Shown here piece after piece: positions 17,926 through 33,584 of a stretch of DNA of 48,708 nucleotides. The notes under the pieces were generated by a model. That model saw nothing but the letters and a program-made list of their open reading frames with translations. It ran no database searches and was not told the DNA's origin. This DNA comes from Chamaesiphon sp. GL140_3_metabinner_50 (GTDB lineage Bacteria; Cyanobacteriota; Cyanobacteriia; Cyanobacteriales; Chamaesiphonaceae): positions 1 through 48,708 of the forward strand of contig NZ_JANYJC010000263.1 of NCBI RefSeq assembly GCF_025361915.1, given 5' to 3'. The position numbers and the translations under genes were made by a program. Numbering within the stretch: the first letter of the stretch is position 1; the number at the start of each line of letters is the position of its first letter.

Positions 17926-20900
17926 CTAATCCACCTTAAAGCGGCTGACACTAGTCTCAAGCACTTGCGAGGTGGTAATTAGCTGTTGGCAAGATTCGGC
18001 AATTTGCATCGCGCTGTCGGAGGTGAGATTGGCGATGGTGGCTACATCTGTCATCACTTCGGTGAGTTTGCGAGACTGAATGTTTTGGGTACCCGCAGAT
18101 TTACCGATGGCTTTGACTAGTTCGCTAATTTGTCCGGTAGCCACGACGATTTCGCTGAGGCTCTGTCTGGTTTCGTTAACGAGGTTGGTACCTTGCACGA
18201 CTTGGGCGATGCCGATTTCCATTGCTTCGGTAACGTCGTTGGTGTCGATCCGAATTTCGTCTACCAAGCGTTCGATTTCGGTAGTTGCATTGGCAGATTG
18301 ATAAGCCAATGAGCGTACTTCGTCGGCGACGACGGCAAATCCTTTCCCATATTGTCCGGCGCGGGTGGCTTCGATCGAAGCATTAAGCGCAAGCAGGTTG
18401 GTTTGGGTGGCGAAGTTTTCGATTAAGTTAACGACTTTAGAGATTTTCCCGAAGGTTTCACCCAGACGTTTGATTTTTTTAGCGGTAGTAGATACAGTCG
18501 ATCGAATTTCGAGAATTTCTTCGACGGTGCTTTCCATCAGCGTGTCGCCATCTTGAACGGTGCGGTTGGCTGATTGGACTACTTGCTCGACTTTTTGGGC
18601 TAAGTCGGCGACTTCTTGGCTGGAGGCTGCCATTAAGTCTACTTGAGTCAAGGCGCGATCGAGTTGTTCGAGTTCTTGTTCGGCTTGAGCGGAAAGGTTA
18701 TTTACCAGCAGGTTGTTTTCGTTAGAGGTACCACTCACGCTAATGGCAGCGGTTTGAACTTGACGGACTAATTCCCGCAGGCTTTGAATGGTGGTGTTAT
18801 AACCGTCGGCAATTGTCCCGATCTCGGTTTCAGATAGCGGCGCACGGACGGTTAAATCGCCTCGGAAGGAGGGCGCGATCGCTTTGAGGACTTTTAAAGC
18901 CTCGTCTTCTAGTCCTTGGCGGTTAGCGCGTTCTCGATCGACTAGGGCGGAAAGTTCTTGCTCTTGGGTGCGGACTCGTTCGAGGTAGGCAGAAAGTTGT
19001 AATGCGGTACCGATTTGCATGGCGACTTGCTCGATCACGGCACGTTCGGATACATCCCAAGCGCGCGGTGCATCGTTTTGATAAACTCCCAACAATCCCC
19101 ACAGGGTATTCCCGATGAAAATCGGTGCCAAAATGTAAGCCTTGGCTTGATATTTTTCGAGAGAGTTAATATAGCAATCGGGGAAGTTTTGGGTGTAGAT
19201 ATCATCGATTGCGGTTGATTTCTCACCTTTGGCATATTTACCACCTTTGGTATTCTTGAGGTAGGTATCTTCTTCGGTGTTATCTTTTTGCGACCATTTG
19301 CGGAGGATGCAGCGATCGTTATTGGTACGATTGCCAGTTAAGACTTCATCTTTGGGTTGCTCGATTAGCAGCGATACCCAGCCACTACCAACGGCTTCGG
19401 CGACGACTTGACCGCTCCAGTCGGGGTTAAACTGATAAATGACAGATCGATCGGTTTTAGAAGCTTGGCGAACTTCTTGGACGACACTGGTAAAGACATC
19501 ATCGACGACTAACGATTGACGAATTTTATCGGCAATCCGGTTGATAGTTTGTTCTTGCTCGGCGCGTTTTTTGAGTTGTTCGATATAGTCGATTTGCTCC
19601 ATCGCAATCCCGACTTGTAGCCCCATTTGGCGCAGCGTTTCGATTTCTTCTTCTTGCCATTTCCGCACGCCAGAGTTTTGATAAGCGGCAATTAATCCCC
19701 ACAATTTACGATCGGCACCAAAGATCGGTGCGAGCATATAGGCTCTTGCTTCAAACTGTTCGAGCAGTTGAATGTGACAAGTTTGGTGTCCGACAGTGTA
19801 AATATCATCGACGGCAAAGCATTCACCATCTTTATACCGTCCGCCTTGAGTGCGTTGCAAGAAGGTATCTTGAACGATATGGACGGTTTCAATTAAATCG
19901 ATCCAGCCAGGAGCCGCTGATTCGGCAATAAATCTCCCACTCCAATCGGCATCGAATTGATAGATTGCCAGTCTGTCGCTATTAAGCAGTTTCCGCCCAT
20001 CTTGGGTCGCAACCTGAAACACAGTCCGCTCGTCTTTGGCACTTCTGAGCCGCTCTTGCAGCTTAGAAAGTCCCCGCTCCCGTTGGAGCCGTTCTTCCAT
20101 TTTCTGGGTCTGAAACTGAGCCAGACGGCGGCTGGTGGTTTGCTGAATTGGGAAGCTAAAACTTTTGGCATAGTCGAGCATAGCTTGGAGTTCGGACTCT
20201 TGCCAGTTGCGCGCGCCAGAGTTTTGGTACACACCTAACATGCCGACCAATTGATTGTTCTTCAAGACCGGGACGACGATGTACGCCTTCATTTGCAGCG
20301 GTTCGAGAGATTCTAATAAGCAGCGATCGAATCTTTTAGCAGCAATATCATTGACTACGTAATAAGGCTTATAGTTATTGCCGTTAATCGAGTAGTCCAA
20401 GTCTAGTGATGTTCCCGCCTTCGCCCAGTTAACGCCGACGGATTCAGCAATGACATTACTGCTCCAGTCAGGATTGTAAGCGACGACCATCGCTCGATCG
20501 GCTTGCAGATTGTGACGGATATTGTCTAGTGTTGCCTGCATCACTTCCTGGGCTTCAACCTCGATCGCGGCTAATAAATCGCGGCGTTGGGATAATTGCA
20601 GTAGCGGTTGATTGGGCTGAACTGCCAGCGTGAGTTCTAGGGATAATTGGGACAAGCAAGCAGTTTCGGCTTCCGACCAGGTGCGGGGACGATCGCATTG
20701 ATGAACGACCAATAAACCCCACACGCGACCCAAACTATAGCTGTCGTTGGCTGCGGAGTAACCGTTGATTAAAATTGGTACGGCGATCGTCGCCTGCACT
20801 TGATACTGTTCTAAAATTTGCTTTTGGTAAGGGCTGGTTTCGCTATTAATCAACGCGATCGTCCGTTGAGAGCGATCGTCAGTGAATTGCTCGAAGCCAA

Positions 20901-21411
20901 AGCCAATTTGGGGAATTTCCACATTCAGCGTCGGTGTCAAGCCGACTTGGACGGCTTCGGCGATCGACCGCCCCATGCTAGCCCCAGTCAATTGATAGAT
21001 CAGGACGCGATCGACATTGAGTAATGTTTTGATATCAGCAACAGCACTAATGAATGCCGCCATCGGTGAGGTCGCTTGTCTAATTTTGGTGGCAACTTGA
21101 TAGATGCGATCGGCATCGATACTGGGGGCAATTGCGATCGGTGCAGTAGCAGTAGGCATCGTCAAGAACCCAGCTAATTCTCGCGCTTTACGGAGGTTTT
21201 GGCGCAGGGTTTCGCTGTTGGGACTATTAGAATTTTCGAGTTTAGCTTGCGCTTCTTGAAGAATTGATAATAGCTGTTGTTTAGCGGTAGTGCTAGTCAT
21301 GGAACGCTCTGGTGTAGACATGGTTTTTTCTGGAGGTGTAGTGACTGAGTTAAGCAATTCTGCTGCTTTATCTTGTCGCTCGTCTGCCGAACTAAATAGA
21401 TTTTTTAACAT
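17926..21411 (-). CDS. pixJ: Soluble 4-GAF cyanobacteriochrome methyl-accepting chemotaxis protein (PixJ/PtxD-like)
   Basis: Four GAF repeats (DRxxIYQF..DWSG..AE...LWGLL..YQ...R.W); MCP tip [34 protein letters not shown]; no TM segment evident. Confidence 0.9.
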
Positions 21412-21462
21412 TTGGAATAGATATATTTACTAAATCTTCCGAACTAGGGCTGATGTTCGAGT

Positions 21463-22002
21463 CTAATTCATACTCAGGGAATTAATTACCCGATCGAGAT
21501 CGATAACTACCCGCGATTGTTGCTCGGCATCGATAAAATAGCCCGATAAAAATAACCGCATCCGATCGGCAAACATCGCTTCACCGATCGGTAAACATTG
21601 CTGGATGTCATAAGTTTCGATCGTCCCAACGCGATCGATTAATAATGCCACCGTTTCATTTTGAATCTGAAAGAGCATTCCCATTCCAGTTGTAAGTTGA
21701 GACTTACTCAAATAACCAGATCCACCCATTAAATGAGCCAAATCTAATACCCAAGTAGCCTTACCACCATAATTAATAATGCCCAATAATGATTCATTCA
21801 TTTTGGGAACTGGTAATATTTCAGCTAGCGAAATTTTTATGGTCGCTTGCAAATCCATTAACGGAATGAGCGCGTTCAAACTATCGCCGATCGTAAAGCC
21901 AAGAAATCGTCGATTATCTTCCTGAAGTTTTGGCTGATGAGTTACTAATTTTTGACTAGAAGAAGGTGACATCTGATTAATAATTTGACTCATAACTGAC
22001 AA
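21463..22002 (-). CDS. cheW: CheW (PixI-like)
   Basis: ILPVPKMNESLLGIINYGGKATWVLDL; operon position. Confidence 0.9.
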   Translation of the reverse strand: MSVMSQIINQMSPSSSQKLVTHQPKLQEDNRRFLGFTIGDSLNALIPLMDLQATIKISLAEILPVPKMNESLLGIINYGGKATWVLDLAHLMGGSGYLSKSQLTTGMGMLFQIQNETVALLIDRVGTIETYDIQQCLPIGEAMFADRMRLFLSGYFIDAEQQSRVVIDLDRVINSLSMN

Positions 22003-22030
22003 CTCATTATTGATAATTTACATGACGATC

Positions 22031-22393
22031 TCAACCAATCAACCGATTGACTGTTTGTAATAAAGTTGGCTCATCTACCGATTTGCTTAAATAAGCATCA
22101 GCACCACTCATATCGCCCCAAGTCCGATCGATCTGTTTATCTTTAGTCGAATAAATCACGATCGGAATATTTTGAGTAGATGGTTCGGTTTTGAGCTTGC
22201 GACAAAGTTCAAAGCCACTTTCTCCAGGCAAAATCACATCTAATACGATTAAATTTGGCTTGAAAGTTTTGAGTCTAATTTCGGCTTCCTCGCCACTAGT
22301 GACGACTAAAATCGAAAACCCTTGCCCTTCCAAACACTTTTTAAGTTTGTCCGCTTCTAACTTACTATCTTCAACAATTAAAATCTGACTCAT
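22031..22393 (-). CDS. CheY-like response regulator (PixH-like)
   Basis: ILIVED...LIVLDVILPGESGFELCRKLK...GADAYLSK. Confidence 0.92.
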   Translation of the reverse strand: MSQILIVEDSKLEADKLKKCLEGQGFSILVVTSGEEAEIRLKTFKPNLIVLDVILPGESGFELCRKLKTEPSTQNIPIVIYSTKDKQIDRTWGDMSGADAYLSKSVDEPTLLQTVNRLIG

Positions 22394-22395
22394 AA

Positions 22396-23724
22396 TTAAT
22401 TACCACCTACAACAAGATATTTATCGATCATTTTCAACACTGATTCCGCCTCGACTGGCTTACCCAAAAACCCCGTCGCCCCCACCATTTTCGATCGCAT
22501 CCGATCGATCAAGCCATCTTTACCAGTTAAAATAATTACTGGAATATGCTTCAAACTAGGAGTTTTCCGAATTTGTTCGCAGACTTCATAGCCATTAGTA
22601 ATTGGCATTAATAAATCTAAAAAGATAAAGTCAGGCTTATTTCTAATTAAACTCGGCATAATTTTAAGCGGATCTTGAACGCCATAACAGCGATAGCCGC
22701 TATCTGTCAGAATTCTTTCTAAAGATTGATAGATTAAGATACTATCGTCGATACAAGCAATTAATGAATCCTGACGATTGCCAGATTTTGGTGTTGCACC
22801 AGCAAGCGGTGGTTGCGCCAATCGTTCGCGAAGCGTCTCGGTACGAGAATCGATCGGTCGGTCGAGCGTACCAGTACTTAAATGATTACTGGTTCCGGTA
22901 CTTAATTGGTTACTAAATTCACTACTCAATGGGCTGCTATTGTCTAAATTAGTCGAGCGACTAATTCTAGACTTTTGTTGAGAAGATAAATTGATAAATC
23001 CCGATCGCAGTAATGGTAATAAAGTGCTAGTAAAATTGATGACAGATTGCCGACTATTAGCAGCCAAACTCCTCAACGAACGATTGCCATCGATCGCTAA
23101 AACAGTATGATGTAAATCGGGATTACCCGCTAACTGATTTAGATCGAGCGATGTGGACACCAGGGCAAACAAACTAGGTGCATAAGCCGCCAACCCAACA
23201 TTCGACCATTCTTGCCAAATCTGAATCGATCTAGTCAAAATTGGTTCGATTTCGAGTAAAGGCAATACCAAATTTAATTGAGCATTACCCGCCCCAGTCT
23301 GCGTCAATTGATACGATAAACGGTTACCGCTATGTTGACTGAATTGAATCACATCGAATAAACTTTCGATCGCCATTCTGCCTACCAATTCGGCACATTG
23401 TTGCCGATCGATTGACTCTTCAACTAACAATCCTGCTAATATATTTGAATCTAAGATGGTTTTGTGTGGATTATTAACTTCTGCCAATTTTTCTGGCGGT
23501 AAGTTAAGGTTAGCTAAATTGAGATTTCTCTGCCAACAACCAATCGGCTCAATGCCACCATCAACCCAGCCAAATCGTCCCAGTCGAAAGGAGAAAGTCC
23601 AACTAGGATATTTTTCAACTTTGATGACTAAGTTTCCACTAAAAGATTGAGATTTAATATTTTTTAGCTGAATTATTAAATCTTTAAAGCTAATACTTGT
23701 TAATTTTTCGCCACTTTCAATCAT
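22396..23724 (-). CDS. PatA-family response regulator (PixG-like)
   Basis: N-terminal PATAN-like domain (IDGNRSLRSLA); C-terminal REC (IACIDDS, FLDLLMPITNGYE). Confidence 0.92.
   Translation of the reverse strand: MIESGEKLTSISFKDLIIQLKNIKSQSFSGNLVIKVEKYPSWTFSFRLGRFGWVDGGIEPIGCWQRNLNLANLNLPPEKLAEVNNPHKTILDSNILAGLLVEESIDRQQCAELVGRMAIESLFDVIQFSQHSGNRLSYQLTQTGAGNAQLNLVLPLLEIEPILTRSIQIWQEWSNVGLAAYAPSLFALVSTSLDLNQLAGNPDLHHTVLAIDGNRSLRSLAANSRQSVINFTSTLLPLLRSGFINLSSQQKSRISRSTNLDNSSPLSSEFSNQLSTGTSNHLSTGTLDRPIDSRTETLRERLAQPPLAGATPKSGNRQDSLIACIDDSILIYQSLERILTDSGYRCYGVQDPLKIMPSLIRNKPDFIFLDLLMPITNGYEVCEQIRKTPSLKHIPVIILTGKDGLIDRMRSKMVGATGFLGKPVEAESVLKMIDKYLVVGGN
22825..22848 (+). mobile_element. 24-nt HIP1-core-inserted micro-element, copy 2 (in PatA linker)
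   Basis: CG|TTCGCGAAGCG-TCTC-GGTAC-GAGA|ATCG. Confidence 0.7.
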
Positions 23725-25216: not shown

Positions 25217-25858
25217 CTACTCCTGTTGCCTGCGTTCGGGGAAAGGACGACCGGGTAAGCTCTCTAATGCGGCTAAAATCCCGGCTTCGGCTGCTTTAAT
25301 ATCCCGTTCTTCGCCACCTAAATACAACCGCCCGAACACGCCCACAGCCGAAATTTGGAGGATATTAATTAATGCCGACTTCTCTGCCTCATTCGCCGCA
25401 ATTGCGGCATACGCCGCTGGTTCTACTTCTAATACATACAAAGTTTGTCCCGCCAGAATCATATTACCCCGCCGACTGCGATTGATCATCTGGGTATGAT
25501 GGGCGGTAATATTCCGAATAATCCGACTCGAAATAACGCGCGGCTTGAGACAATCTGACTGACGCACCCCTAAATAAGCCAAAATCGCTTGCCCTGCGGC
25601 ATGAACGTCGCCCTGAGAGCTGGCATGAATTTCCATTAATCCATATAACCGCTCGATAATCTGTACCCCCGGTCGTACCTGGGCAGATTTGAGGGCGATA
25701 TCCATCATTTGATTGATTTCAATGCCTGGAGATACCTCGATCCACAAAGATGAATCCGCTGGCAATGGCAAAAACCCCTGAGCTTCAGTACCCAAGTATG
25801 CTGCATGTTGTAGTTGCAAGCGATCGATAAATACGTAGCTGCGGAGATCGATTCCCAA
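25217..25858 (-). CDS. ccmP: Carboxysome shell tandem-BMC protein CcmP
   Basis: [60 protein letters not shown]. Confidence 0.93.
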
Positions 25859-26040: not shown

Positions 26041-26583
26041 CTATTTAGCCGCCGCTCGGTTGGCAACCCGAATCAATTGAGTCAACAAACCCTGCACGGC
26101 TTTTTGTCCGGTAGGCGCACCGCTAACCGCTTTATCAGCCCCGACTTCGCCGACTAGAGCTTTGACATATTCATTGTAGGCAACCACCGAGGCATTGAGC
26201 TTGACAGCATCGATATTCCCATTTCCAGCCCGCAGTCCTTGAATGGTAGTAGCTAGATTTGCCGCCGCTTTGCCAGTTGCGCCATCTATCGCAACACCAC
26301 TGGGCAACAATGCGGCAACTAATGTTGCTGGCGAACTGCCATTGATGACATCGAATGTCGCTGCATCGCCGACGCTATTGGCTGTTAAGGCTTGGGAAAA
26401 CTGGTTTACAGCAGTTTGACTCTGCGGCGCGTAAACGGTCTGACGATTGCCAGCTAGCGGGGCAGAGATCGCTTCTTTGCCGCTACCATTATCGTTACCA
26501 CCAGCGATTTGAGCTAATCCGGGGGTACTATTTGCCAGCATTGCGATCGTAGCCATTGCGAATAGATAAGTTAACTGTTTCAT
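26041..26583 (-). CDS. Small secreted Ala/Gly-rich helical protein, copy B
   Basis: Sec signal (..PGLA-QI); 95/121 identity by hand count to the core of 28652..29341. Confidence 0.85.
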   Translation of the reverse strand: MKQLTYLFAMATIAMLANSTPGLAQIAGGNDNGSGKEAISAPLAGNRQTVYAPQSQTAVNQFSQALTANSVGDAATFDVINGSSPATLVAALLPSGVAIDGATGKAAANLATTIQGLRAGNGNIDAVKLNASVVAYNEYVKALVGEVGADKAVSGAPTGQKAVQGLLTQLIRVANRAAAK

Positions 26584-26627
26584 AATTTAGATTAATTACC
26601 TCGATAAATATGAATGCAAAAAGTAAT

Positions 26628-28310
26628 TTAGAACCGGAAACCCAATCCCCCGTTGATGGTAAACCGCGAACCGCCAGTTTCTTTATTAACCAAATCGACA
26701 ACCGATGGCACCAATTGAATCGTGGCACTATCGCTTAAATACACCGTAATTGGTAAGCCCACGTTTAAATCTTGACCGTTCCAATCGGCAACCAGTGAGA
26801 AATTTGGCGATAACCGCGTACCCAAACTGCCAAATACCCCATAGCCATTTTTACCATTGCGAATATCGCCGACGCTGCGGAATCGCCCTGCGCCACCACC
26901 GACAGATATCGTCGTATTACTAAAAAAGCCCACATTGGCATCGGGATTGACTACAAAGCTGGCAACACCATAACCCGTCTGCCCGCCATCTAAATTTTGA
27001 CTCAACAGCACGGCATTTTCGTAGCCACCTGCGATCGCAAAGTTATCACCAAACTGCTTGTGTAGTTTGAAGCTGAGGCTACTATTTTTGAGGAAACCAC
27101 TAAAAATAGTGCTGTAAGATGTGGCAACTGTTTCCAACCCAATAAAGTTCCGCGCATCGCCTAAACCAAAACCCAGGTAAGCTGCACCATCTTTTCTAGA
27201 TTGACCTGTATTGGGCGGATCGATATACAAAGCCGCCCGCGTCGATGCTTGGTAAGAGGCACCAATAAAGACATTTCCCCAGCTCAACCCAAAGGCACTA
27301 GGAGTAGTTAAACCACCAACTGGATAGATGTTGGTATTAATCGCCCTCAGATCTGGCAGTCGATCGACTACACTAAGTTTAGAAATTGCTTCGTCGTTAC
27401 TCAAAGCGGCAATTCTGGGCGTAACATCAGAAATGGTAGTCGCATACGCGCCTTGAGGACAAGCCGCGATGTATTTATTAGCTGGGCTAGACTTATCGAG
27501 TGCGGTTAATTTACCCGTACTGACTAAAACTTGATGGATATAAGCGGCTACATCGGCGCGAGTCGCTACTGTCTGCGCGCCAAAGTTGCCCCCAGGCAGT
27601 TTGGAATTATCATATTCGACACCAACCGCGATACATTTCTGAGTGGCAGCAATTAGCGCATTCTGCCCATAGCTGGGGACTTGCTGGGCATCGCCATAGA
27701 CGCTATTGAGATCTAAGTTACCGCTGGGGGCGAATTTATTGCCATTAGTGAGGGCGACGATGCTCTCGATCCGATTAATTTGCCGATCGGGTGCGAAGGT
27801 AGCGTTGGGGTATCCAGCTAAAAAGCCACTCTGATAAGCTTTTTGAATAACCGCACTCGCCCAATACCTAGCCGCAACATCTGTAAATTTTGCTGGAGAG
27901 CGAACTGGCTGAAGGTCGAAAGCCCTGTTTAATAAGGCGGCAAACTCAGCTCTAGTTACAGGTCGATCGGGTTTAAAAGTACCGTCGGGGTAGCCTTTAA
28001 TAATATCTTTTTCGACTAGTGCTTTAATAAATGGCTCTGCCCAATTACCAGCTATATCGCTAGCCTGAGCGACTTTTTTAGTGGGTCGATTTGCTAGTGT
28101 TGTCGGATTGGTGGTGGCGTTAACAGCCTCAGCCAATGAGCCAGACACTGTTAATTTAGATAATAAATTACCGCCATCGACAGGCATGGGTTCGGCAAAT
28201 ACCGCTCCGGTATTAATAACTATGCTGGTAGAAACCGAGCCAATGAGTAAGAATGCGAGACTATCGATCCGAATGTTGCCGGGACGGGGTTCTTGATGAT
28301 TCTGGTTCAT
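26628..28310 (-). CDS. SLH-domain outer-membrane beta-barrel protein, copy B
   Basis: SLH repeats (IKGYPDGTFKPDRPVTRAEFA; LAGYPNATFAPDRQINR); amphipathic strands ending GLGFRF; start moved to ATG 28310 using the leader shared with copy A. Confidence 0.85.
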   Translation of the reverse strand: MNQNHQEPRPGNIRIDSLAFLLIGSVSTSIVINTGAVFAEPMPVDGGNLLSKLTVSGSLAEAVNATTNPTTLANRPTKKVAQASDIAGNWAEPFIKALVEKDIIKGYPDGTFKPDRPVTRAEFAALLNRAFDLQPVRSPAKFTDVAARYWASAVIQKAYQSGFLAGYPNATFAPDRQINRIESIVALTNGNKFAPSGNLDLNSVYGDAQQVPSYGQNALIAATQKCIAVGVEYDNSKLPGGNFGAQTVATRADVAAYIHQVLVSTGKLTALDKSSPANKYIAACPQGAYATTISDVTPRIAALSNDEAISKLSVVDRLPDLRAINTNIYPVGGLTTPSAFGLSWGNVFIGASYQASTRAALYIDPPNTGQSRKDGAAYLGFGLGDARNFIGLETVATSYSTIFSGFLKNSSLSFKLHKQFGDNFAIAGGYENAVLLSQNLDGGQTGYGVASFVVNPDANVGFFSNTTISVGGGAGRFRSVGDIRNGKNGYGVFGSLGTRLSPNFSLVADWNGQDLNVGLPITVYLSDSATIQLVPSVVDLVNKETGGSRFTINGGLGFRF

Positions 28311-28440
28311 GGTTTTCCTGGCGCACTCCTCACCGGAAAAGTTATCGATATCTATTATCGCATTACTGACGATCTTCTTATCTATATTTATCGTAGCAAT
28401 TGACTTTCTTTTGTTGGTGTTAAAAAGCACCAATCGCCCG

Positions 28441-28464
28441 TTGGCGGAGCCTCTCTGCAAGAGA
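28441..28464 (+). mobile_element. 24-nt HIP1-core-inserted micro-element, copy 4
   Basis: CG|TTGGCGGAGCC-TCTC-TGCAA-GAGA|ATCG. Confidence 0.75.
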
Positions 28465-28578
28465 ATCGGCAGTACGATCGCGATTTTGACTGCATATATT
28501 TAGCAAACGATTACTGTTAACGATTTGTTAATTTTGATGCAATCGCTCGTCACTAGTCCTTCAGAACATATTTACGGG

Positions 28579-28614
28579 AACAGGAGCGAGAAAACATGTT
28601 TTCTCACTCCTGTT
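28579..28614 (-). terminator. Hairpin after small protein A
   Basis: AACAGGAGCGAGAAAAC-at-GTTTTCTCACTCCTGTT; the single mismatch is a G-U pair on the minus strand. Confidence 0.65.
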
Positions 28615-28651
28615 AGTTGCGAATTAATTAGTAAATAATCGCGTTATTATC

Positions 28652-29341
28652 CTATTTAGGGGTCGGTGGAGTAGTAGGATCTGGAGTGCTAGGTGCAGGT
28701 GGAGTGCTAGGCGTAGATGGAGTGCTAGGCGCAGATGGAGTGCTAGGCACGGGTGGAGTAGGCGCAGATGGAGTAGACGCAGGTGCAGGTGCCGATTGGT
28801 TGGCAATTTGAATCAATTGACCCAAAACTCCTTGCAGAGCTTTTTGTCCGGCTGGTGCGCTGTTAATGGCTTTCTCTGGGCCGACTTCGCCGACTAGAGC
28901 TTTGACATACTCATTGTACGCGCCAACTGAAGCATTCAGCTTGGTCGCACTGATGTTACCATTACCCGATCGCATTCCCTGAACGGTAGATGCTAGATTA
29001 ACTGCGGCTTTACCTGTCGCGCCATCGGCAGCAACACCAGTAGGTAACAGTGCGGCGACTAGTGGTGCTGGTGCGGCACCATTGATGACATCAAATGTCG
29101 CTGCATCGCCAACGCTATTGGCTGTAAGCGACTGTGAAAACTGATTGACAGCACTTTGACTCGTCGAGGTATAAGATGGCTCGCCACCGCCAACGATACC
29201 GCCACCGCCAGTGTTGGTAATCGAATTAAAGGTGTTGCCATTATCGGAACCGTTACCGATTTGAGCTTGAGCTGGAGCGAGAGCGATCGTTGCTAAGGTA
29301 GCAACAACACCCACGCTTAATAAATAAGAAGAGATTTTCAT
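28652..29341 (-). CDS. Small secreted Ala/Gly-rich helical protein with Pro/Ser/Thr tail, copy A
   Basis: Signal peptide ..PAQA-QI; core shared with copy B; C-terminal (PST)n tail. Confidence 0.85.
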   Translation of the reverse strand: MKISSYLLSVGVVATLATIALAPAQAQIGNGSDNGNTFNSITNTGGGGIVGGGEPSYTSTSQSAVNQFSQSLTANSVGDAATFDVINGAAPAPLVAALLPTGVAADGATGKAAVNLASTVQGMRSGNGNISATKLNASVGAYNEYVKALVGEVGPEKAINSAPAGQKALQGVLGQLIQIANQSAPAPASTPSAPTPPVPSTPSAPSTPSTPSTPPAPSTPDPTTPPTPK

Positions 29342-29438
29342 GTTGACGATCGTAAAGAAAGGGATGAATAATACCGATCGAAAGAATGAGAATCGCTCGT
29401 CAACTTTCGATCGGGCAACTAATTAACGTCAGTAAAGG

Positions 29439-31169
29439 TTAGAAACTAAACCCTAAACCACCGCTGACAGTAAAGCGCGAACCACCAGTTTCGGGATTCA
29501 CTAGATCTACCAGTGCAGGAGTGATTTGGAAGGATGTACCGCCACCAAAAGGAATGGAAATAGGTAAACCAACGCCCAGATCTTGACCGTTCCAGTCAGC
29601 AACTAGCGAAACATTAGAGAATAACTTCGTACCGATACTGCCAAAGACGTTGATTGTATCGTTACCCCGACGAATATCGCCGACATTCCGGAACCGACCA
29701 GCACCAGCACCTACAGAGAGGGTAGTGTTGCTGAAGAAGCCTTGATTTGGATCGGGGTTAAGGATGAGGCTAGCGACACCGTAGCCAGTCCGACCGCCAT
29801 TGACACCACCATCGCGATTGCCAAAACCGCCGGAATTACTACCGAAGGTAATCGCATTTTCATAGCCACCTGCGATCGCAAAGTTATCACCTAGCAATTT
29901 ATGAACTTTAAAGCTGATCCCACCGTTTTCAAAAGAATTACCACCTTGGCGATTGTAGGTAGTAGCGACAGTTTCTAAGCCCAAGAAGTTGCGAGCATCG
30001 CCTAAACCAAGACCGACGGAATAGGCGTAGGTTTCTTGGCCTTTGACCTTATCTGCTGCTGTAGCATTGGCAGCGTTAGGCAGATTGGGATTGCTGTAAA
30101 TATTCGGGCGAGTTTGGTTTTGGTAACCCGCACCGAGGAAGAAGCCAGTATTAGCACCAAAAGCTGTTGGAGTGCCCAAACCGCCTACAGGGAAAGTACT
30201 TACGCCACCACGGCTAGCGATGTCGGGGACTTGACCGGGAATGCCTAATTTGGCGATTGCCTCGTCAGCAGTTATGGCTGTACGTGGTGCGGGATTATCG
30301 ACACCAGTAATAGTGGTGACATATACACCTTGAGGACAAGATGCGATGTATTTGTTAGCAGGGCTAGATTTGTCTAGTGCAGTCAACCTGCCAGCACCGA
30401 CCAATACTTGGTGAATGTATGCAGCAACATCGGCACGAGTCGCAATGGTGTTGGGGCCGAAGTTACCACCAGGAAGCTTGGAGCTATCGTATTCGACACT
30501 AACCGCGATACATTTTTGAGTGGCGGCTACCAGTGCGTTGTTACCGTAGCTAGGAACTTGAGCGGCATCACCAAAGACGCTGTTAAGGTCTAATGTGCCA
30601 CTAGGTTCGAGTTTGCTACCATTGACTAACGAAACTAAACCTTGAATCCGTAAGAGGTTTTGCTTGGGGCCGAAGCTGCCTGGATATCCAGCCAAAAATC
30701 CACTCCGATAAGCTTTTTGGATGACCTCAGCCGCCCAATAATTTGAAGGGACATCTTTAAATTTGCGCCCAGCCCGAATTGGTTTGAGATCGAAGGCTTT
30801 GTTTAGTAAGGCGGCAAATTCAGCCCGCGTGATCGGTTGGTCGGGTCTGAAGGTACCATCTGGATAGCCCTTGATGATATCTTTTTCGACTAAAACTTTA
30901 ATGAAAGGTTCTGCCCAGTTGCCAGCGACATCGCTAGCTTGTGCTACTTTGTTCGTGGCTGGAATTGCGGCGGGCGCGGTTGTAGTTGGTTTAATGGTGT
31001 TGGCTAACGGCGCAGTGGCAGCAACTTTATTTAACGAACTATTATTTGGTGCGGCTGTTGCTGGCGAGATGGCGACCAGTACACCTGTAACGATCGAACC
31101 TAGCAATAATGATGCAATTCGACCGATCTGTGCGCGTTCGATCTGTGATTTCTGATTTTTTTGGTTCAT
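29439..31169 (-). CDS. SLH-domain outer-membrane beta-barrel protein, copy A
   Basis: Signal peptide; SLH repeats (IKGYPDGTFRPDQPITRAEFA); barrel ending GLGFSF with terminal Phe; ATG at 31169. Confidence 0.85.
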   Translation of the reverse strand: MNQKNQKSQIERAQIGRIASLLLGSIVTGVLVAISPATAAPNNSSLNKVAATAPLANTIKPTTTAPAAIPATNKVAQASDVAGNWAEPFIKVLVEKDIIKGYPDGTFRPDQPITRAEFAALLNKAFDLKPIRAGRKFKDVPSNYWAAEVIQKAYRSGFLAGYPGSFGPKQNLLRIQGLVSLVNGSKLEPSGTLDLNSVFGDAAQVPSYGNNALVAATQKCIAVSVEYDSSKLPGGNFGPNTIATRADVAAYIHQVLVGAGRLTALDKSSPANKYIASCPQGVYVTTITGVDNPAPRTAITADEAIAKLGIPGQVPDIASRGGVSTFPVGGLGTPTAFGANTGFFLGAGYQNQTRPNIYSNPNLPNAANATAADKVKGQETYAYSVGLGLGDARNFLGLETVATTYNRQGGNSFENGGISFKVHKLLGDNFAIAGGYENAITFGSNSGGFGNRDGGVNGGRTGYGVASLILNPDPNQGFFSNTTLSVGAGAGRFRNVGDIRRGNDTINVFGSIGTKLFSNVSLVADWNGQDLGVGLPISIPFGGGTSFQITPALVDLVNPETGGSRFTVSGGLGFSF

Positions 31170-31646
31170 GGGTTTCCTTAGTACACTCCTCAACGAAAAA
31201 GTTAACACACTAATATTTTAGTGCAAATTTCCAAATCGAGAGAAGTTGATTATTTATTATAAGTTTACACAACAATCGAGAGTCGGGCAGGCTCGTTTTA
31301 TCCATCGGTTGAATTTACGCATGTGTCGCTCGAATATTTAAACATCCTGACGATCGATCGGTTGTTTTGAGCCTCTGTCTGCCAAGTTCAGAGATTTGGC
31401 TGAGTACATTTGAGGCGAAAAAATATACTTTAGATCTATCGACACAGCTCGTAAAATCTTATTTTTGGCATTTTAAGTTACCAAAAATCCTGAGTTTCGA
31501 TTGCGTCAATCCGCTCGTAATTCAATCTCTTACACCACAAGACAATGCTAATTGCCATCGAATTAGCAAAGGTCAAAAATCAAATTTTAGATTAAATCTA
31601 CCTTTGATTTGAACTTGTTAAAAACCGTCGATTGTGTCATAATATC

Positions 31647-33584
31647 ATGTCCACTAAAAGCCGATCTTTGTTGAGTATTGAAGCTACCGCAGCGACTCTT
31701 GAAAAACTTGTTAACGCGCTTTCCAATCATCAGAAGTATACGATCCTGACGGTAATCGATATCAGTTTGTTCCTGATCTCGATCGGGTTAGCAATCGGCT
31801 TCGAGTATGGGTTCGACCTCGTTCCTGCGGAAATGCTACACTTGGGTGATTTCACGATCGCCCAGATCGGGATCGAGATTGGATTATTTTGGTATTTTGG
31901 GATTTATCAGCAGGTATTACGATACATTGACGGTGGATTTATCTTCTCGATCGCTAAGGCGGTATGTGCCAGTACTGTCGCGACGATCGCGCTTTCGGGC
32001 TTGTTTGTAAACCCAGTAATTCCGATTGCGATCCCGCTAATGAATGGAATGCTGGCACTAATATTATCGATCGCATTTAGATTGTGCGTACGATTGACAT
32101 TGGGGAGAATGCGCCAGATTAATTATCCTTGTCAGGATATCAGTGGGGTCGCGATCTATGGGGCTGGGAGTGCTGGCTGTATCCTCGCGCAAGCTCTAGC
32201 TGGCGAACATGGCAAACGGGTAATTGGGTTTGTCGATGATAATCCCTATCTCCAAGGTCGCAACGTGCAAGGGATGAGGGTCTATTCGCCAGCCGAATTG
32301 CTGAAGTTAAAAGCCAATGTCGGATTTGAAGAAATCTTGCTGGCAATGCCCTCGATCGAAGGACACCGCAAACGCGATATTTTACAAAAGCTGCAAGTAT
32401 TGGGCGTATCTGTCAAAACAGTCCCCAGCATTACCGAAATTTTAAGCGGTCACGTCTCTGTTAATAAAGTCCGCGAACTCGATATTGAAGATTTATTAGG
32501 GCGTAAACCGATCGCCGCTCGACCCGAATTACTCCAGCACGATCTGACCGATCGGGTAGTATTAGTTACTGGGGGCGGTGGTTCGATCGGTTCGGAACTG
32601 TGTCGGCAAATTGCCAAGCAGCAGCCCAAAATGCTGATAATTTACGAGCTACATGAATTTGCGCTCTATCAGATGGATCTAGAGCTAGGCGAAAATTATC
32701 CCCATCTGCATAAAGTTGCTTGTCTGGGTTCGGTCACTGACGATCGCACCTTAACCCAAGTTCTAGAAAAATACAGTGTAGACACGATCTATCATGCCGC
32801 TGCTTACAAGCACGTCCCGATCGTCGAAGCAAATCCAGTTTCGGGCATTATTAACAATATCAATGGTACCCTGACCGCTGCCAAATGTGCGATCGCTTGC
32901 GGCGTGCCCAAATTTGTGCTGATCTCGACCGATAAAGCCGTGCGCCCGACTAATATTATGGGTGCTACCAAACGTGTAGCCGAATTGGTACTCCAAGGAT
33001 TAGCCGATCTGCCCAACCACGGTACCTGCTTTACGATGGTAAGATTTGGTAACGTTTTGGGTAGCAGCGGTTCTGTCGTCCCCCGCTTCCGCGCTCAGAT
33101 TGCGGCGGGTAAATCGATCACGTTGACTCATACAGACATTACGCGCTATTTTATGACCATCCCCGAAGCTGCGACGCTGGTAATTCAAGCTGGTGCGATG
33201 GCTAAAGGTGGTGAAGTATTTGTACTGGATATGGGCGAACCAGTCAAAATTTACGATTTAGCCGCCCAGATGATTCGCTTACACGGCTTAGAACCACTCA
33301 AAGATGTCAAAATCGAGGTGACTGGTTTGCGTCCCGGCGAGAAAATCTACGAAGAGCTACTAATCGACTGTAATGCGGCTGTTCCCACCGGACACCCCAA
33401 GATTTTCTGCGCCCGTGAGGCTAAACTAGCCTGGAAAGACCTTTCACCCCAGCTCACCAATTTACTCGACTCAGCGGCTGAATGCGATGTCACTGAGTGT
33501 GTAGCTGCACTGCACAAGTTAGTGCCCGAATACCAACCGATGGGACAATACGCCCAAGTTGAATACGAACCGATCGCGGTGTGA
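31647..33584 (+). CDS. Membrane-bound NDP-sugar 4,6-dehydratase (CapD/PglF/WbpM family)
   Basis: N-terminal TMs, IYGAGSAG, VTGGGGSIGSELCRQ, HAAAYKHVP, STDKAVRPTNIMGATKR, RFGNVLGSSGSVVP, GLRPGEK. Confidence 0.95.
   Translation: MSTKSRSLLSIEATAATLEKLVNALSNHQKYTILTVIDISLFLISIGLAIGFEYGFDLVPAEMLHLGDFTIAQIGIEIGLFWYFGIYQQVLRYIDGGFIFSIAKAVCASTVATIALSGLFVNPVIPIAIPLMNGMLALILSIAFRLCVRLTLGRMRQINYPCQDISGVAIYGAGSAGCILAQALAGEHGKRVIGFVDDNPYLQGRNVQGMRVYSPAELLKLKANVGFEEILLAMPSIEGHRKRDILQKLQVLGVSVKTVPSITEILSGHVSVNKVRELDIEDLLGRKPIAARPELLQHDLTDRVVLVTGGGGSIGSELCRQIAKQQPKMLIIYELHEFALYQMDLELGENYPHLHKVACLGSVTDDRTLTQVLEKYSVDTIYHAAAYKHVPIVEANPVSGIINNINGTLTAAKCAIACGVPKFVLISTDKAVRPTNIMGATKRVAELVLQGLADLPNHGTCFTMVRFGNVLGSSGSVVPRFRAQIAAGKSITLTHTDITRYFMTIPEAATLVIQAGAMAKGGEVFVLDMGEPVKIYDLAAQMIRLHGLEPLKDVKIEVTGLRPGEKIYEELLIDCNAAVPTGHPKIFCAREAKLAWKDLSPQLTNLLDSAAECDVTECVAALHKLVPEYQPMGQYAQVEYEPIAV

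Follow-up and report, generated by a model that had tools for sequence, protein, structure and literature searches.

A conserved barrel and its tagged secreted partner, duplicated in tandem in Chamaesiphon, as a candidate export and display module

What purpose is served by two successive gene pairs, each encoding a predicted beta-barrel protein with SLH repeats and a small secreted protein? The question is raised by positions 26041 to 31169 of contig NZ_JANYJC010000263.1 of the cyanobacterium Chamaesiphon sp. GL140_3_metabinner_50 (48,708 nucleotides, the whole of which is called the window), where barrel A is followed by small A and barrel B by small B on the minus strand. An initial annotation, made from the sequence alone, had considered these pairs a tandemly duplicated secretion or surface-display system. 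Here, we report that they belong to a real, conserved and undescribed module, in which a barrel is accompanied by a partner tagged at its N-terminus, and that neither family has a Pfam or NCBIfam model. A full-text search, with few subscription papers and no supplements in its scope (proteome tables may list members), retrieved no paper on the barrel family, and none appeared under the locus tags of PCC 7120 and Anabaena variabilis, which were guessed from accession offsets. With a probability of about one half, the barrel and the gene that follows it would constitute a dedicated two-component system, in which recognition of the tag by the barrel leads to export of the partner and to its retention on the cell surface.

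Pairing of the barrel with a tagged partner

A co-oriented candidate secreted partner adjoins 142 of the 151 distinct barrel genes, compared with 445 of 1415 long genes of the Chamaesiphon genome taken as background (31%). Partners were called by a crude signal test or by a match to the helical core that small A and small B share, and a few of the 142 calls are probably spurious. This indicates that the barrel has a cognate secreted partner, as had been proposed, and stays with it across phyla; barrels that usually occur alone, which the initial annotation had held to speak against it, were not found. The core is present at 102 of the 151 loci. Seven barrels are without a detected downstream partner, three of them with a core gene nearby (L130, L136 and L138), and two have no room for one.

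The core was found in 39 of 301 genomes of the same phylum, 38 of which are barrel-positive. There, 52 of 55 core matches follow a co-oriented barrel at a distance of no more than about 2 kb (coordinates compared by hand), two are at contig ends and one is weak and has no barrel. The core match in G074, weak and with neither a signal peptide nor a barrel within 5.5 kb, was rejected. In Gemmatimonadota (251 genomes, at least one of which had contributed to the profiles), all 17 core matches stand behind a barrel. The partner profile covers the C-terminal core only, a first iterated profile having drifted into low-complexity sequence. In Cyanobacteria and Gemmatimonadota, the family thus described, which is the C-terminal part of a helical bundle, is encoded after the barrel; at two Salinivenus barrels, it is encoded before it. 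At the Salinivenus loci (L206:1504-2460, minus strand, L138 and L139), the partner is upstream in two, and the third barrel itself opens with a tag-like peptide. At least five longer core-bearing proteins (282-342 amino acids) exist, none fused to a barrel among the matches listed.

In the model of mature small A, about 30 disordered residues precede a helical bundle, with a predicted local distance difference test (pLDDT) score of 82. The best fold match of the core (Z 6.0) falls within the common helical-bundle range, and no family could be assigned; an Atlas search with small B (best score 0.85, template-modelling (TM) score under 0.4) was not used. Moreover, the 121-residue helical core was rejected as the defining element, because green sulfur bacteria are without it.

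The most widely shared element of the partners is an N-terminal tag rather than the helical core. Many partners carry G-N-x-S-D-(V/I)-T-G directly after the signal peptide; in the window, small A has G-N-G-S-D and small B a variant, G-G-N-D, and residues Q27 and D33 of small A are at least 90% conserved (alignment A4). A first tag motif was present at 82 of 151 barrel loci and in 5 of 1415 control genes, and a second, simpler one in 11 of 19 Gemmatimonadota cases and 9 of 14 from a set containing Chlorobium, against 4 of 1650 controls; because the patterns were written after the partners had been seen, these counts are descriptions with a background rate and not blind tests. The bodies behind the tag comprise the helical core, CHAT-domain proteins (seven loci by alignment, one confirmed by Pfam), short helical proteins, proteins of about 570 residues and bare low-complexity tails. 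In the Chlorobium-containing set, no helical core was found, and 12 of 14 partners consist, by eye, of a signal, the tag and a Ser/Thr/Pro/Gly-rich tail. The tag is often repeated within the partner; the mature chain of one (L216:1125-1500, minus strand) is mostly tag in tandem, in more than 10 copies. On a quick tree, the N-terminal classes follow the barrel clades (24 changes, shuffled mean 67.8). A plain glycosylation sequon, N-x-S, was rejected as an explanation of the tag, since Asn occurs in only 24 of 52 aligned tags. The predicted complex of barrel A with mature small A scored 0.02 in both runs (mark 0.32), with the controls not folded, and was taken as evidence neither way.

Two further observations concern the partners. 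The Chamaesiphon genome encodes a secreted CHAT-type protein (C119:742-2148, minus strand) that is homologous to the CHAT partners and has no tag; its gene lies behind a partial gene resembling, by eye, an autotransporter. Within one clade of barrels, the partner is followed by another, third gene for a secreted protein (C110:12493-13131 of the same genome, L027:2663-3376, L028 and L169). Its L027 copy has no Pfam match at 1e-6, and the gene may encode a further component.

The barrel family and known barrel-cargo systems

The barrel domain of barrel B was modelled from a 146-row alignment with 12 strands (pLDDT 92.5), and barrel A was assigned the same fold through its homology to this model. 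A plug-like N-terminal segment is confidently placed without regular structure, and residues 1-21 contain no helix. Among 48,161 solved chains, the closest folds are FapF (Z 18.0, root-mean-square deviation (rmsd) 2.9, 200 aligned residues), KdgM (Z 17.8, rmsd 2.1, 159 aligned), COG4313 (Z 16.9), NalP (Z 16.5) and NanC (Z 16.0); because these are near ties, the search gives the fold class only and no function. Foldseek with the barrel returned generic barrels only, no solved barrel was among the PDB sequence matches of the barrel sequence or profile, and both Pfam and NCBIfam detected the SLH part only. Of 19 conserved barrel positions that are charged or polar, 13 (our own count) would be located at the outer strand ends and in the long loops, if these loops are taken to be extracellular. 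The conserved residues include Lys, His and Arg in strand 4 and an Arg at the mouth.

Both barrel domains start with (F/Y)PVGGLxTPxAFG and end in Phe, as had been noticed. The terminal Phe was, however, rejected as a universal feature, many relatives extending past it. The SLH tether, initially presented as part of the module, turned out to be optional and was likewise rejected as a defining feature: a motif test detects SLH in about 40 of 151 barrels, some Gemmatimonadota barrels have a C-terminal OmpA domain in its place, and most family members have no tether. In the window, two SLH stretches per barrel pass in Pfam and a third repeat is seen by eye only. Among the barrels fused to the OmpA peptidoglycan-binding domain (L133:3902-5683, L150 and L201), L133 has no detected partner and L201 has one.

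The barrel matches YjbH in an Atlas structure search (TM 0.73). Its profile aligns with that of nine stand-alone YjbH-like barrels and the E. coli N-terminal barrel over 191 columns (hhalign probability 96.9, expect value (E) 1.5e-10), whereas the match to E. coli YjbH alone is weak (E 0.22) and PF06082 has no match in the Chamaesiphon genome. The barrel thus belongs to a separate unnamed family, a distant relative of the FapF-like N-terminal barrel of YjbH/GfcD. The resemblance to YjbH/GfcD put forward earlier thus holds as a distant relationship and not as PF06082 membership. In the phylum, 8 of the 301 genomes encode stand-alone YjbH-like barrels of 240-280 amino acids (L174-L184), for which no tagged partner is evident.

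The family comprises 704 representatives at 50% identity, from Cyanobacteria, Gemmatimonadota, Rhodothermota and green sulfur bacteria. It was detected in 51 of 301 genomes of the same phylum, in 13 of 251 of Gemmatimonadota (19 full barrels, with two weak partial matches set aside) and in 12 of 151 of the Chlorobium-containing set (15 barrels), which represents the phylum of G327. Six barrel proteins of this set were checked by name, and five are assigned to Chlorobium, Chlorobaculum or Pelodictyon. One homologue belongs to a cluster with accession BAB74568.1, which we take to be from Nostoc PCC 7120. A single-protein scan of the species collection gave no match.

The module resembles a dedicated barrel-cargo system, yet it fails membership of each known one that was tested. 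In the parts of the sources available, GfcD and YjbH are two-barrel proteins with a FapF-like 12-stranded N-terminal barrel (10.1101/2021.02.17.431615, PMC8592465, PMC11494523). The role of this barrel is left open there, GfcA or an amyloid-like peptide being proposed as cargo (PMC8592465, 10.1101/2021.02.17.431615, 10.1101/2022.02.11.480155 and PMC11494523 taken together). As far as the same partial sources describe the YjbH/GfcD and YjbE/GfcA pairs of group 4 capsules, our module shares with them a 12-stranded FapF-like barrel, a small low-complexity secreted gene in the same unit and some link to glycan loci. However, the window barrels have a single barrel of 236-254 amino acids at the chain end, with neither a middle domain nor a second, 13-stranded barrel. 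Moreover, the partner is encoded after the barrel and in most cases includes a folded body, and partners of the family carry the G-N-x-S-D tag, which E. coli YjbE does not.

With FapF, as available sections of PMC5557850 present it, the barrel shares 12 strands, an N-terminal segment that superposes on the plug region (residues 1-236 of the model aligned to chain positions 88-406), a long periplasmic N-terminal extension and a partner presumably exported by Sec. It differs by an identity of only 11%, by a plug-like segment in which the model shows no helix and by an SLH or OmpA tether where FapF has a coiled coil; the window partner is predicted to be helical and not amyloid, unlike in the Fap operon, and no C39/FapD-like peptidase family was found among the scanned neighbours.

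Type XI secretion (Slam) and two-partner secretion follow a similar logic, the gene of an outer-membrane barrel being adjacent to that of the Sec-exported cargo it serves; in type XI, according to the accessible portion of PMC8406197, the cargo is targeted by a C-terminal domain, whereas here the candidate signal is a few N-terminal residues. Neither DUF560, TPR, POTRA nor ShlB was found in the barrels, in which only SLH matched, at E up to 0.1. The partner has no Pfam match and an all-helical model, that is, no TbpB_B_D barrel, TPS domain or beta-helix. TpsB is an Omp85-type protein with POTRA domains, and TpsA consists of an N-terminal TPS domain and a beta-helix. The two-partner-like arrangement suggested initially is therefore retained for the barrel beside its own cargo gene and abandoned for TpsA/TpsB membership (12 strands and no POTRA, ShlB or TPS).

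Classical autotransporters combine a passenger and a 12-stranded barrel in one chain; the fold is like that of NalP (Z 16.5), but there is no PF03797 match, SLH occupies the N-terminal part, and a separate gene encodes the partner. The barrels are like SLH-OprB porins of the SomA/SomB type in having an SLH tether at the N-terminus and a barrel with a terminal Phe at the C-terminus, and unlike them in having no OprB match, a smaller barrel and an obligatory-looking partner gene; NF033921 reached 34 and 42.6 bits (cut-off 100), in the SLH part only. This agrees with the distinction from classic SLH/OprB porins drawn earlier, and no characterized porin was matched end to end. KdgM/NanC and COG4313 gave no sequence-family match (no Pfam match, no barrel among PDB sequence matches). 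Finally, in the curli pair CsgG-CsgF, a small secreted protein inserts its N-terminal peptide into the secretion pore, so that its remaining part is anchored on the outside, but CsgG is an oligomeric lipoprotein pore and no sequence or fold relation was seen.

The duplicated locus in Chamaesiphon

All four genes and the hairpin are present in the order first described, which on the minus strand (31169 to 26041) runs barrel A, small A, hairpin, barrel B, small B:

31170..31204, minus: barrel A leader with GAGGAG ribosome-binding site; its counterpart is duplicated upstream of barrel B
29439..31169, minus: barrel A gene, 576 amino acids; signal region, SLH repeats, linker, barrel domain (30203-29442)
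28652..29341, minus: small A gene, 229 amino acids; Sec-type signal (1-26), tag, disordered linker, helical core, Pro/Ser/Thr tail
29243..29257, minus: small A N-terminal tag G-N-G-S-D (residues 29-33), candidate recognition peptide
28793..29167, minus: small A helical core, predicted bundle with no clear solved relative
28655..28792, minus: small A Pro/Ser/Thr-rich tail with 18-nucleotide tandem repeats, absent from small B
28579..28614, minus: stable hairpin 3' of small A, with no U-tract
28311..28344, minus: barrel B leader, duplicate of the barrel A leader
26628..28310, minus: barrel B gene, 560 amino acids; signal region, SLH repeats, linker, predicted 12-stranded barrel (27338-26631)
26041..26583, minus: small B gene, 180 amino acids; signal (1-24), variant tag G-G-N-D near 26511-26491, helical core, no tail
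31632..33584, plus: polysaccharide biosynthesis dehydratase (PF02719), divergent neighbour of the module

The start of barrel A was taken as the ATG behind the GAGGAG site, and signal peptides were judged by eye and with a crude script. Barrels A and B are identical at 338 of 584 aligned columns, and the 121-residue cores of the small proteins at 95 residues (78.5%, counted from the alignment), close to the earlier estimate of about 79%. The leaders are conserved between the copies, as claimed, and in a relative too. The duplication of the pair is kept in Chamaesiphon relatives (genus from homologue names); the named homologues of the small protein are from Chamaesiphon.

The barrel is present in 26 of 27 genomes of the genus, and in 7 of the 27, our own included, two SLH-type copies stand 2.6-2.9 kb apart. 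The genome itself has four barrels. Besides the two in the window, C314 encodes one that has SLH and a homologous partner, and C110 one that has no SLH and a different secreted partner. Cognate types were compared over 20 regions from relatives, L002 and the window. Where a partner was detected, A-type barrels were accompanied by an A-type partner in 17 of 17 cases and B-type barrels by a B-type partner in 4 of 4; five barrels had no partner match (three of these at a contig end), and three partnered barrels belong to neither type. On these comparisons, the duplication seen in the window is old, and its two cognate pairs, which differ in their tags, have not swapped. Unit duplication recurs, because tandem or clustered barrel-partner pairs occur in other lineages as well: L186 with L199 (G555:C4), L005 with L032 (G002:C2), L058 (G149:C30) and L074 with L084.

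The hairpin has 18-nucleotide arms with 16 predicted pairs (z -5.7), and none of 200 shuffles folds equally well; it has no U-tract and is not among the terminator-scan matches, promoter and terminator scans both being at chance level. Stable 3' folds also stand behind most A-type partners of relatives (no control set). Contigs of relatives from one RNA run (0.09 share) span both modules, and one bridges barrel A and small A; such contigs show neither transcription nor its level. A codon-bias ranking was uninformative, its reference set being filled with short genes; at its top are several families of short secreted proteins rich in Ala, Gly, Thr and Val, partly encoded in tandem (C310:3603-3926, C139:5641-6379, C261:6562-7559 and C174:17210-17899).

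Directly behind small B, at 25217-25858 on the minus strand, lies a BMC-domain gene (Pfam E 5e-5, below the cut-off), which resembles that of the carboxysome shell protein CcmP and is not a conserved neighbour of the pair. Further on, four minus-strand genes (17926-23724) resemble, by eye, a PatA-type regulator, CheY, CheW and a GAF-domain chemoreceptor. In Oscillatoria-like genomes (L072, L074, L086, L106 and L127), pairs are located among trypsin-like protease, COP23 and fasciclin genes.

Possible export, docking or anchoring of the partner

Tag recognition, export and surface docking would be the simplest account, because the partner is fixed, its freed N-terminus is constant and the inferred outer mouth of the barrel is conserved. 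Both proteins would cross the inner membrane by Sec, the beta-barrel assembly machinery (BAM) would insert the barrel, and signal cleavage would expose the tag. The partner might then thread through unfolded once the plug moves, as FapF substrates do, with the tag remaining docked at the conserved outer mouth so that the variable body is displayed: a helical bundle, a protease-like CHAT domain or a Ser/Thr-rich spacer, possibly glycosylated.

Several points weigh against this two-component system. The fold does not show protein export, because in the model-based search FapF lies within about 1 Z unit of the small-solute channels KdgM and COG4313, and partners of 480-800 amino acids would need threading through a narrow barrel. 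The partner profile was built partly from the cyanobacterial genomes in which the core was then counted, and both tag patterns were composed with the partner sequences in sight. About 45% of the barrels have no first-motif partner, the tag of small B is degenerate, and the N-terminus differs in several sub-families (S-P-S-x-G repeats, T-P-R-G); for a few barrels, no partner was detected at all (L103, L133/L190, L149 and L150). Finally, co-clustering of tags with barrels is expected from linkage and kinship alone.

In an alternative reading, the tag would bind the barrel with no translocation through it, the partner being a periplasmic plug, gate or adaptor, or leaving by another route and docking afterwards. 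The pairing and tag evidence fits this equally, neither CHAT-domain proteins nor partners of 570-800 amino acids would have to be threaded, and the tag-like peptide that the Salinivenus barrel L206 bears at its own N-terminus would be on the periplasmic side before folding. However, most of the conserved polar barrel residues map to the inferred outer mouth and not to the periplasmic face, and bare disordered tails have no evident periplasmic job; we regard docking alone as rather unlikely.

The genomic context bears on another proposal, a stand-alone version of that made for GfcA and GfcD, in which a Ser/Thr-rich partner would be a glycan carrier tying a capsule or sheath exopolysaccharide to the outer membrane through the barrel. 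It is compatible with export and display, and it accords with the profile match to YjbH-like barrels and with GfcA being proposed, in the part of PMC8592465 available, as glycosylated cargo of GfcD. Glycan genes are among the nearest neighbours of 14 of 48 barrel loci and 5 of 40 control loci (Fisher p 0.07), and polysaccharide export genes of 6 of 48 and 0 of 40 (p 0.03); both enrichments are inflated by kinship, five of the 14 loci being kin with the same neighbour, and the controls are arbitrary loci from ten cyanobacterial genomes other than the test genomes. Capsule-type genes adjoin 6 of 14 loci of the Chlorobium-containing set (neighbours picked by eye), and a PF02719 gene adjoins the window pair and all six related tandem loci fetched. 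No gfcB/gfcC-like gene was found among the scanned neighbours (up to three per locus, first 320 amino acids). Against the proposal, enrichment is weak overall, the neighbours of most loci are unrelated, and E. coli YjbE is untagged. Anchoring of this kind seems improbable to us as the function of the module.

A channel for small solutes, similar to KdgM or COG4313 and with a partner that acts as its lid or captures the solute, would suit the Z values of KdgM, COG4313 and NanC and the conserved basic residues of strand 4 and the mouth, but it is very improbable, as barrel loci have no consistent catabolic or transporter neighbours and partner bodies that range from a protease-like domain to pure low complexity fit the capture of one solute badly.

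Barrel-plus-cognate-cargo pairs are the route by which type XI secretion was recognized. More tentatively, the module might represent a minimal type of secretion or display, in which a barrel of about 230 residues and a tag of five to ten residues would serve for any cargo in four lineages, the N-terminal barrel of GfcD/YjbH being a captured cousin. If true, the latter view would account for the role of that barrel in group 4 capsules. Genetics should be feasible, because the BAB74568.1 homologue is probably from Nostoc PCC 7120. If the tag proved sufficient, the substrate or anchored molecule of the FapF-like GfcD/YjbH barrel would become accessible to experiment, and cyanobacteria would have a new export route, a new type of secretion, and with it a very small tag for surface display.

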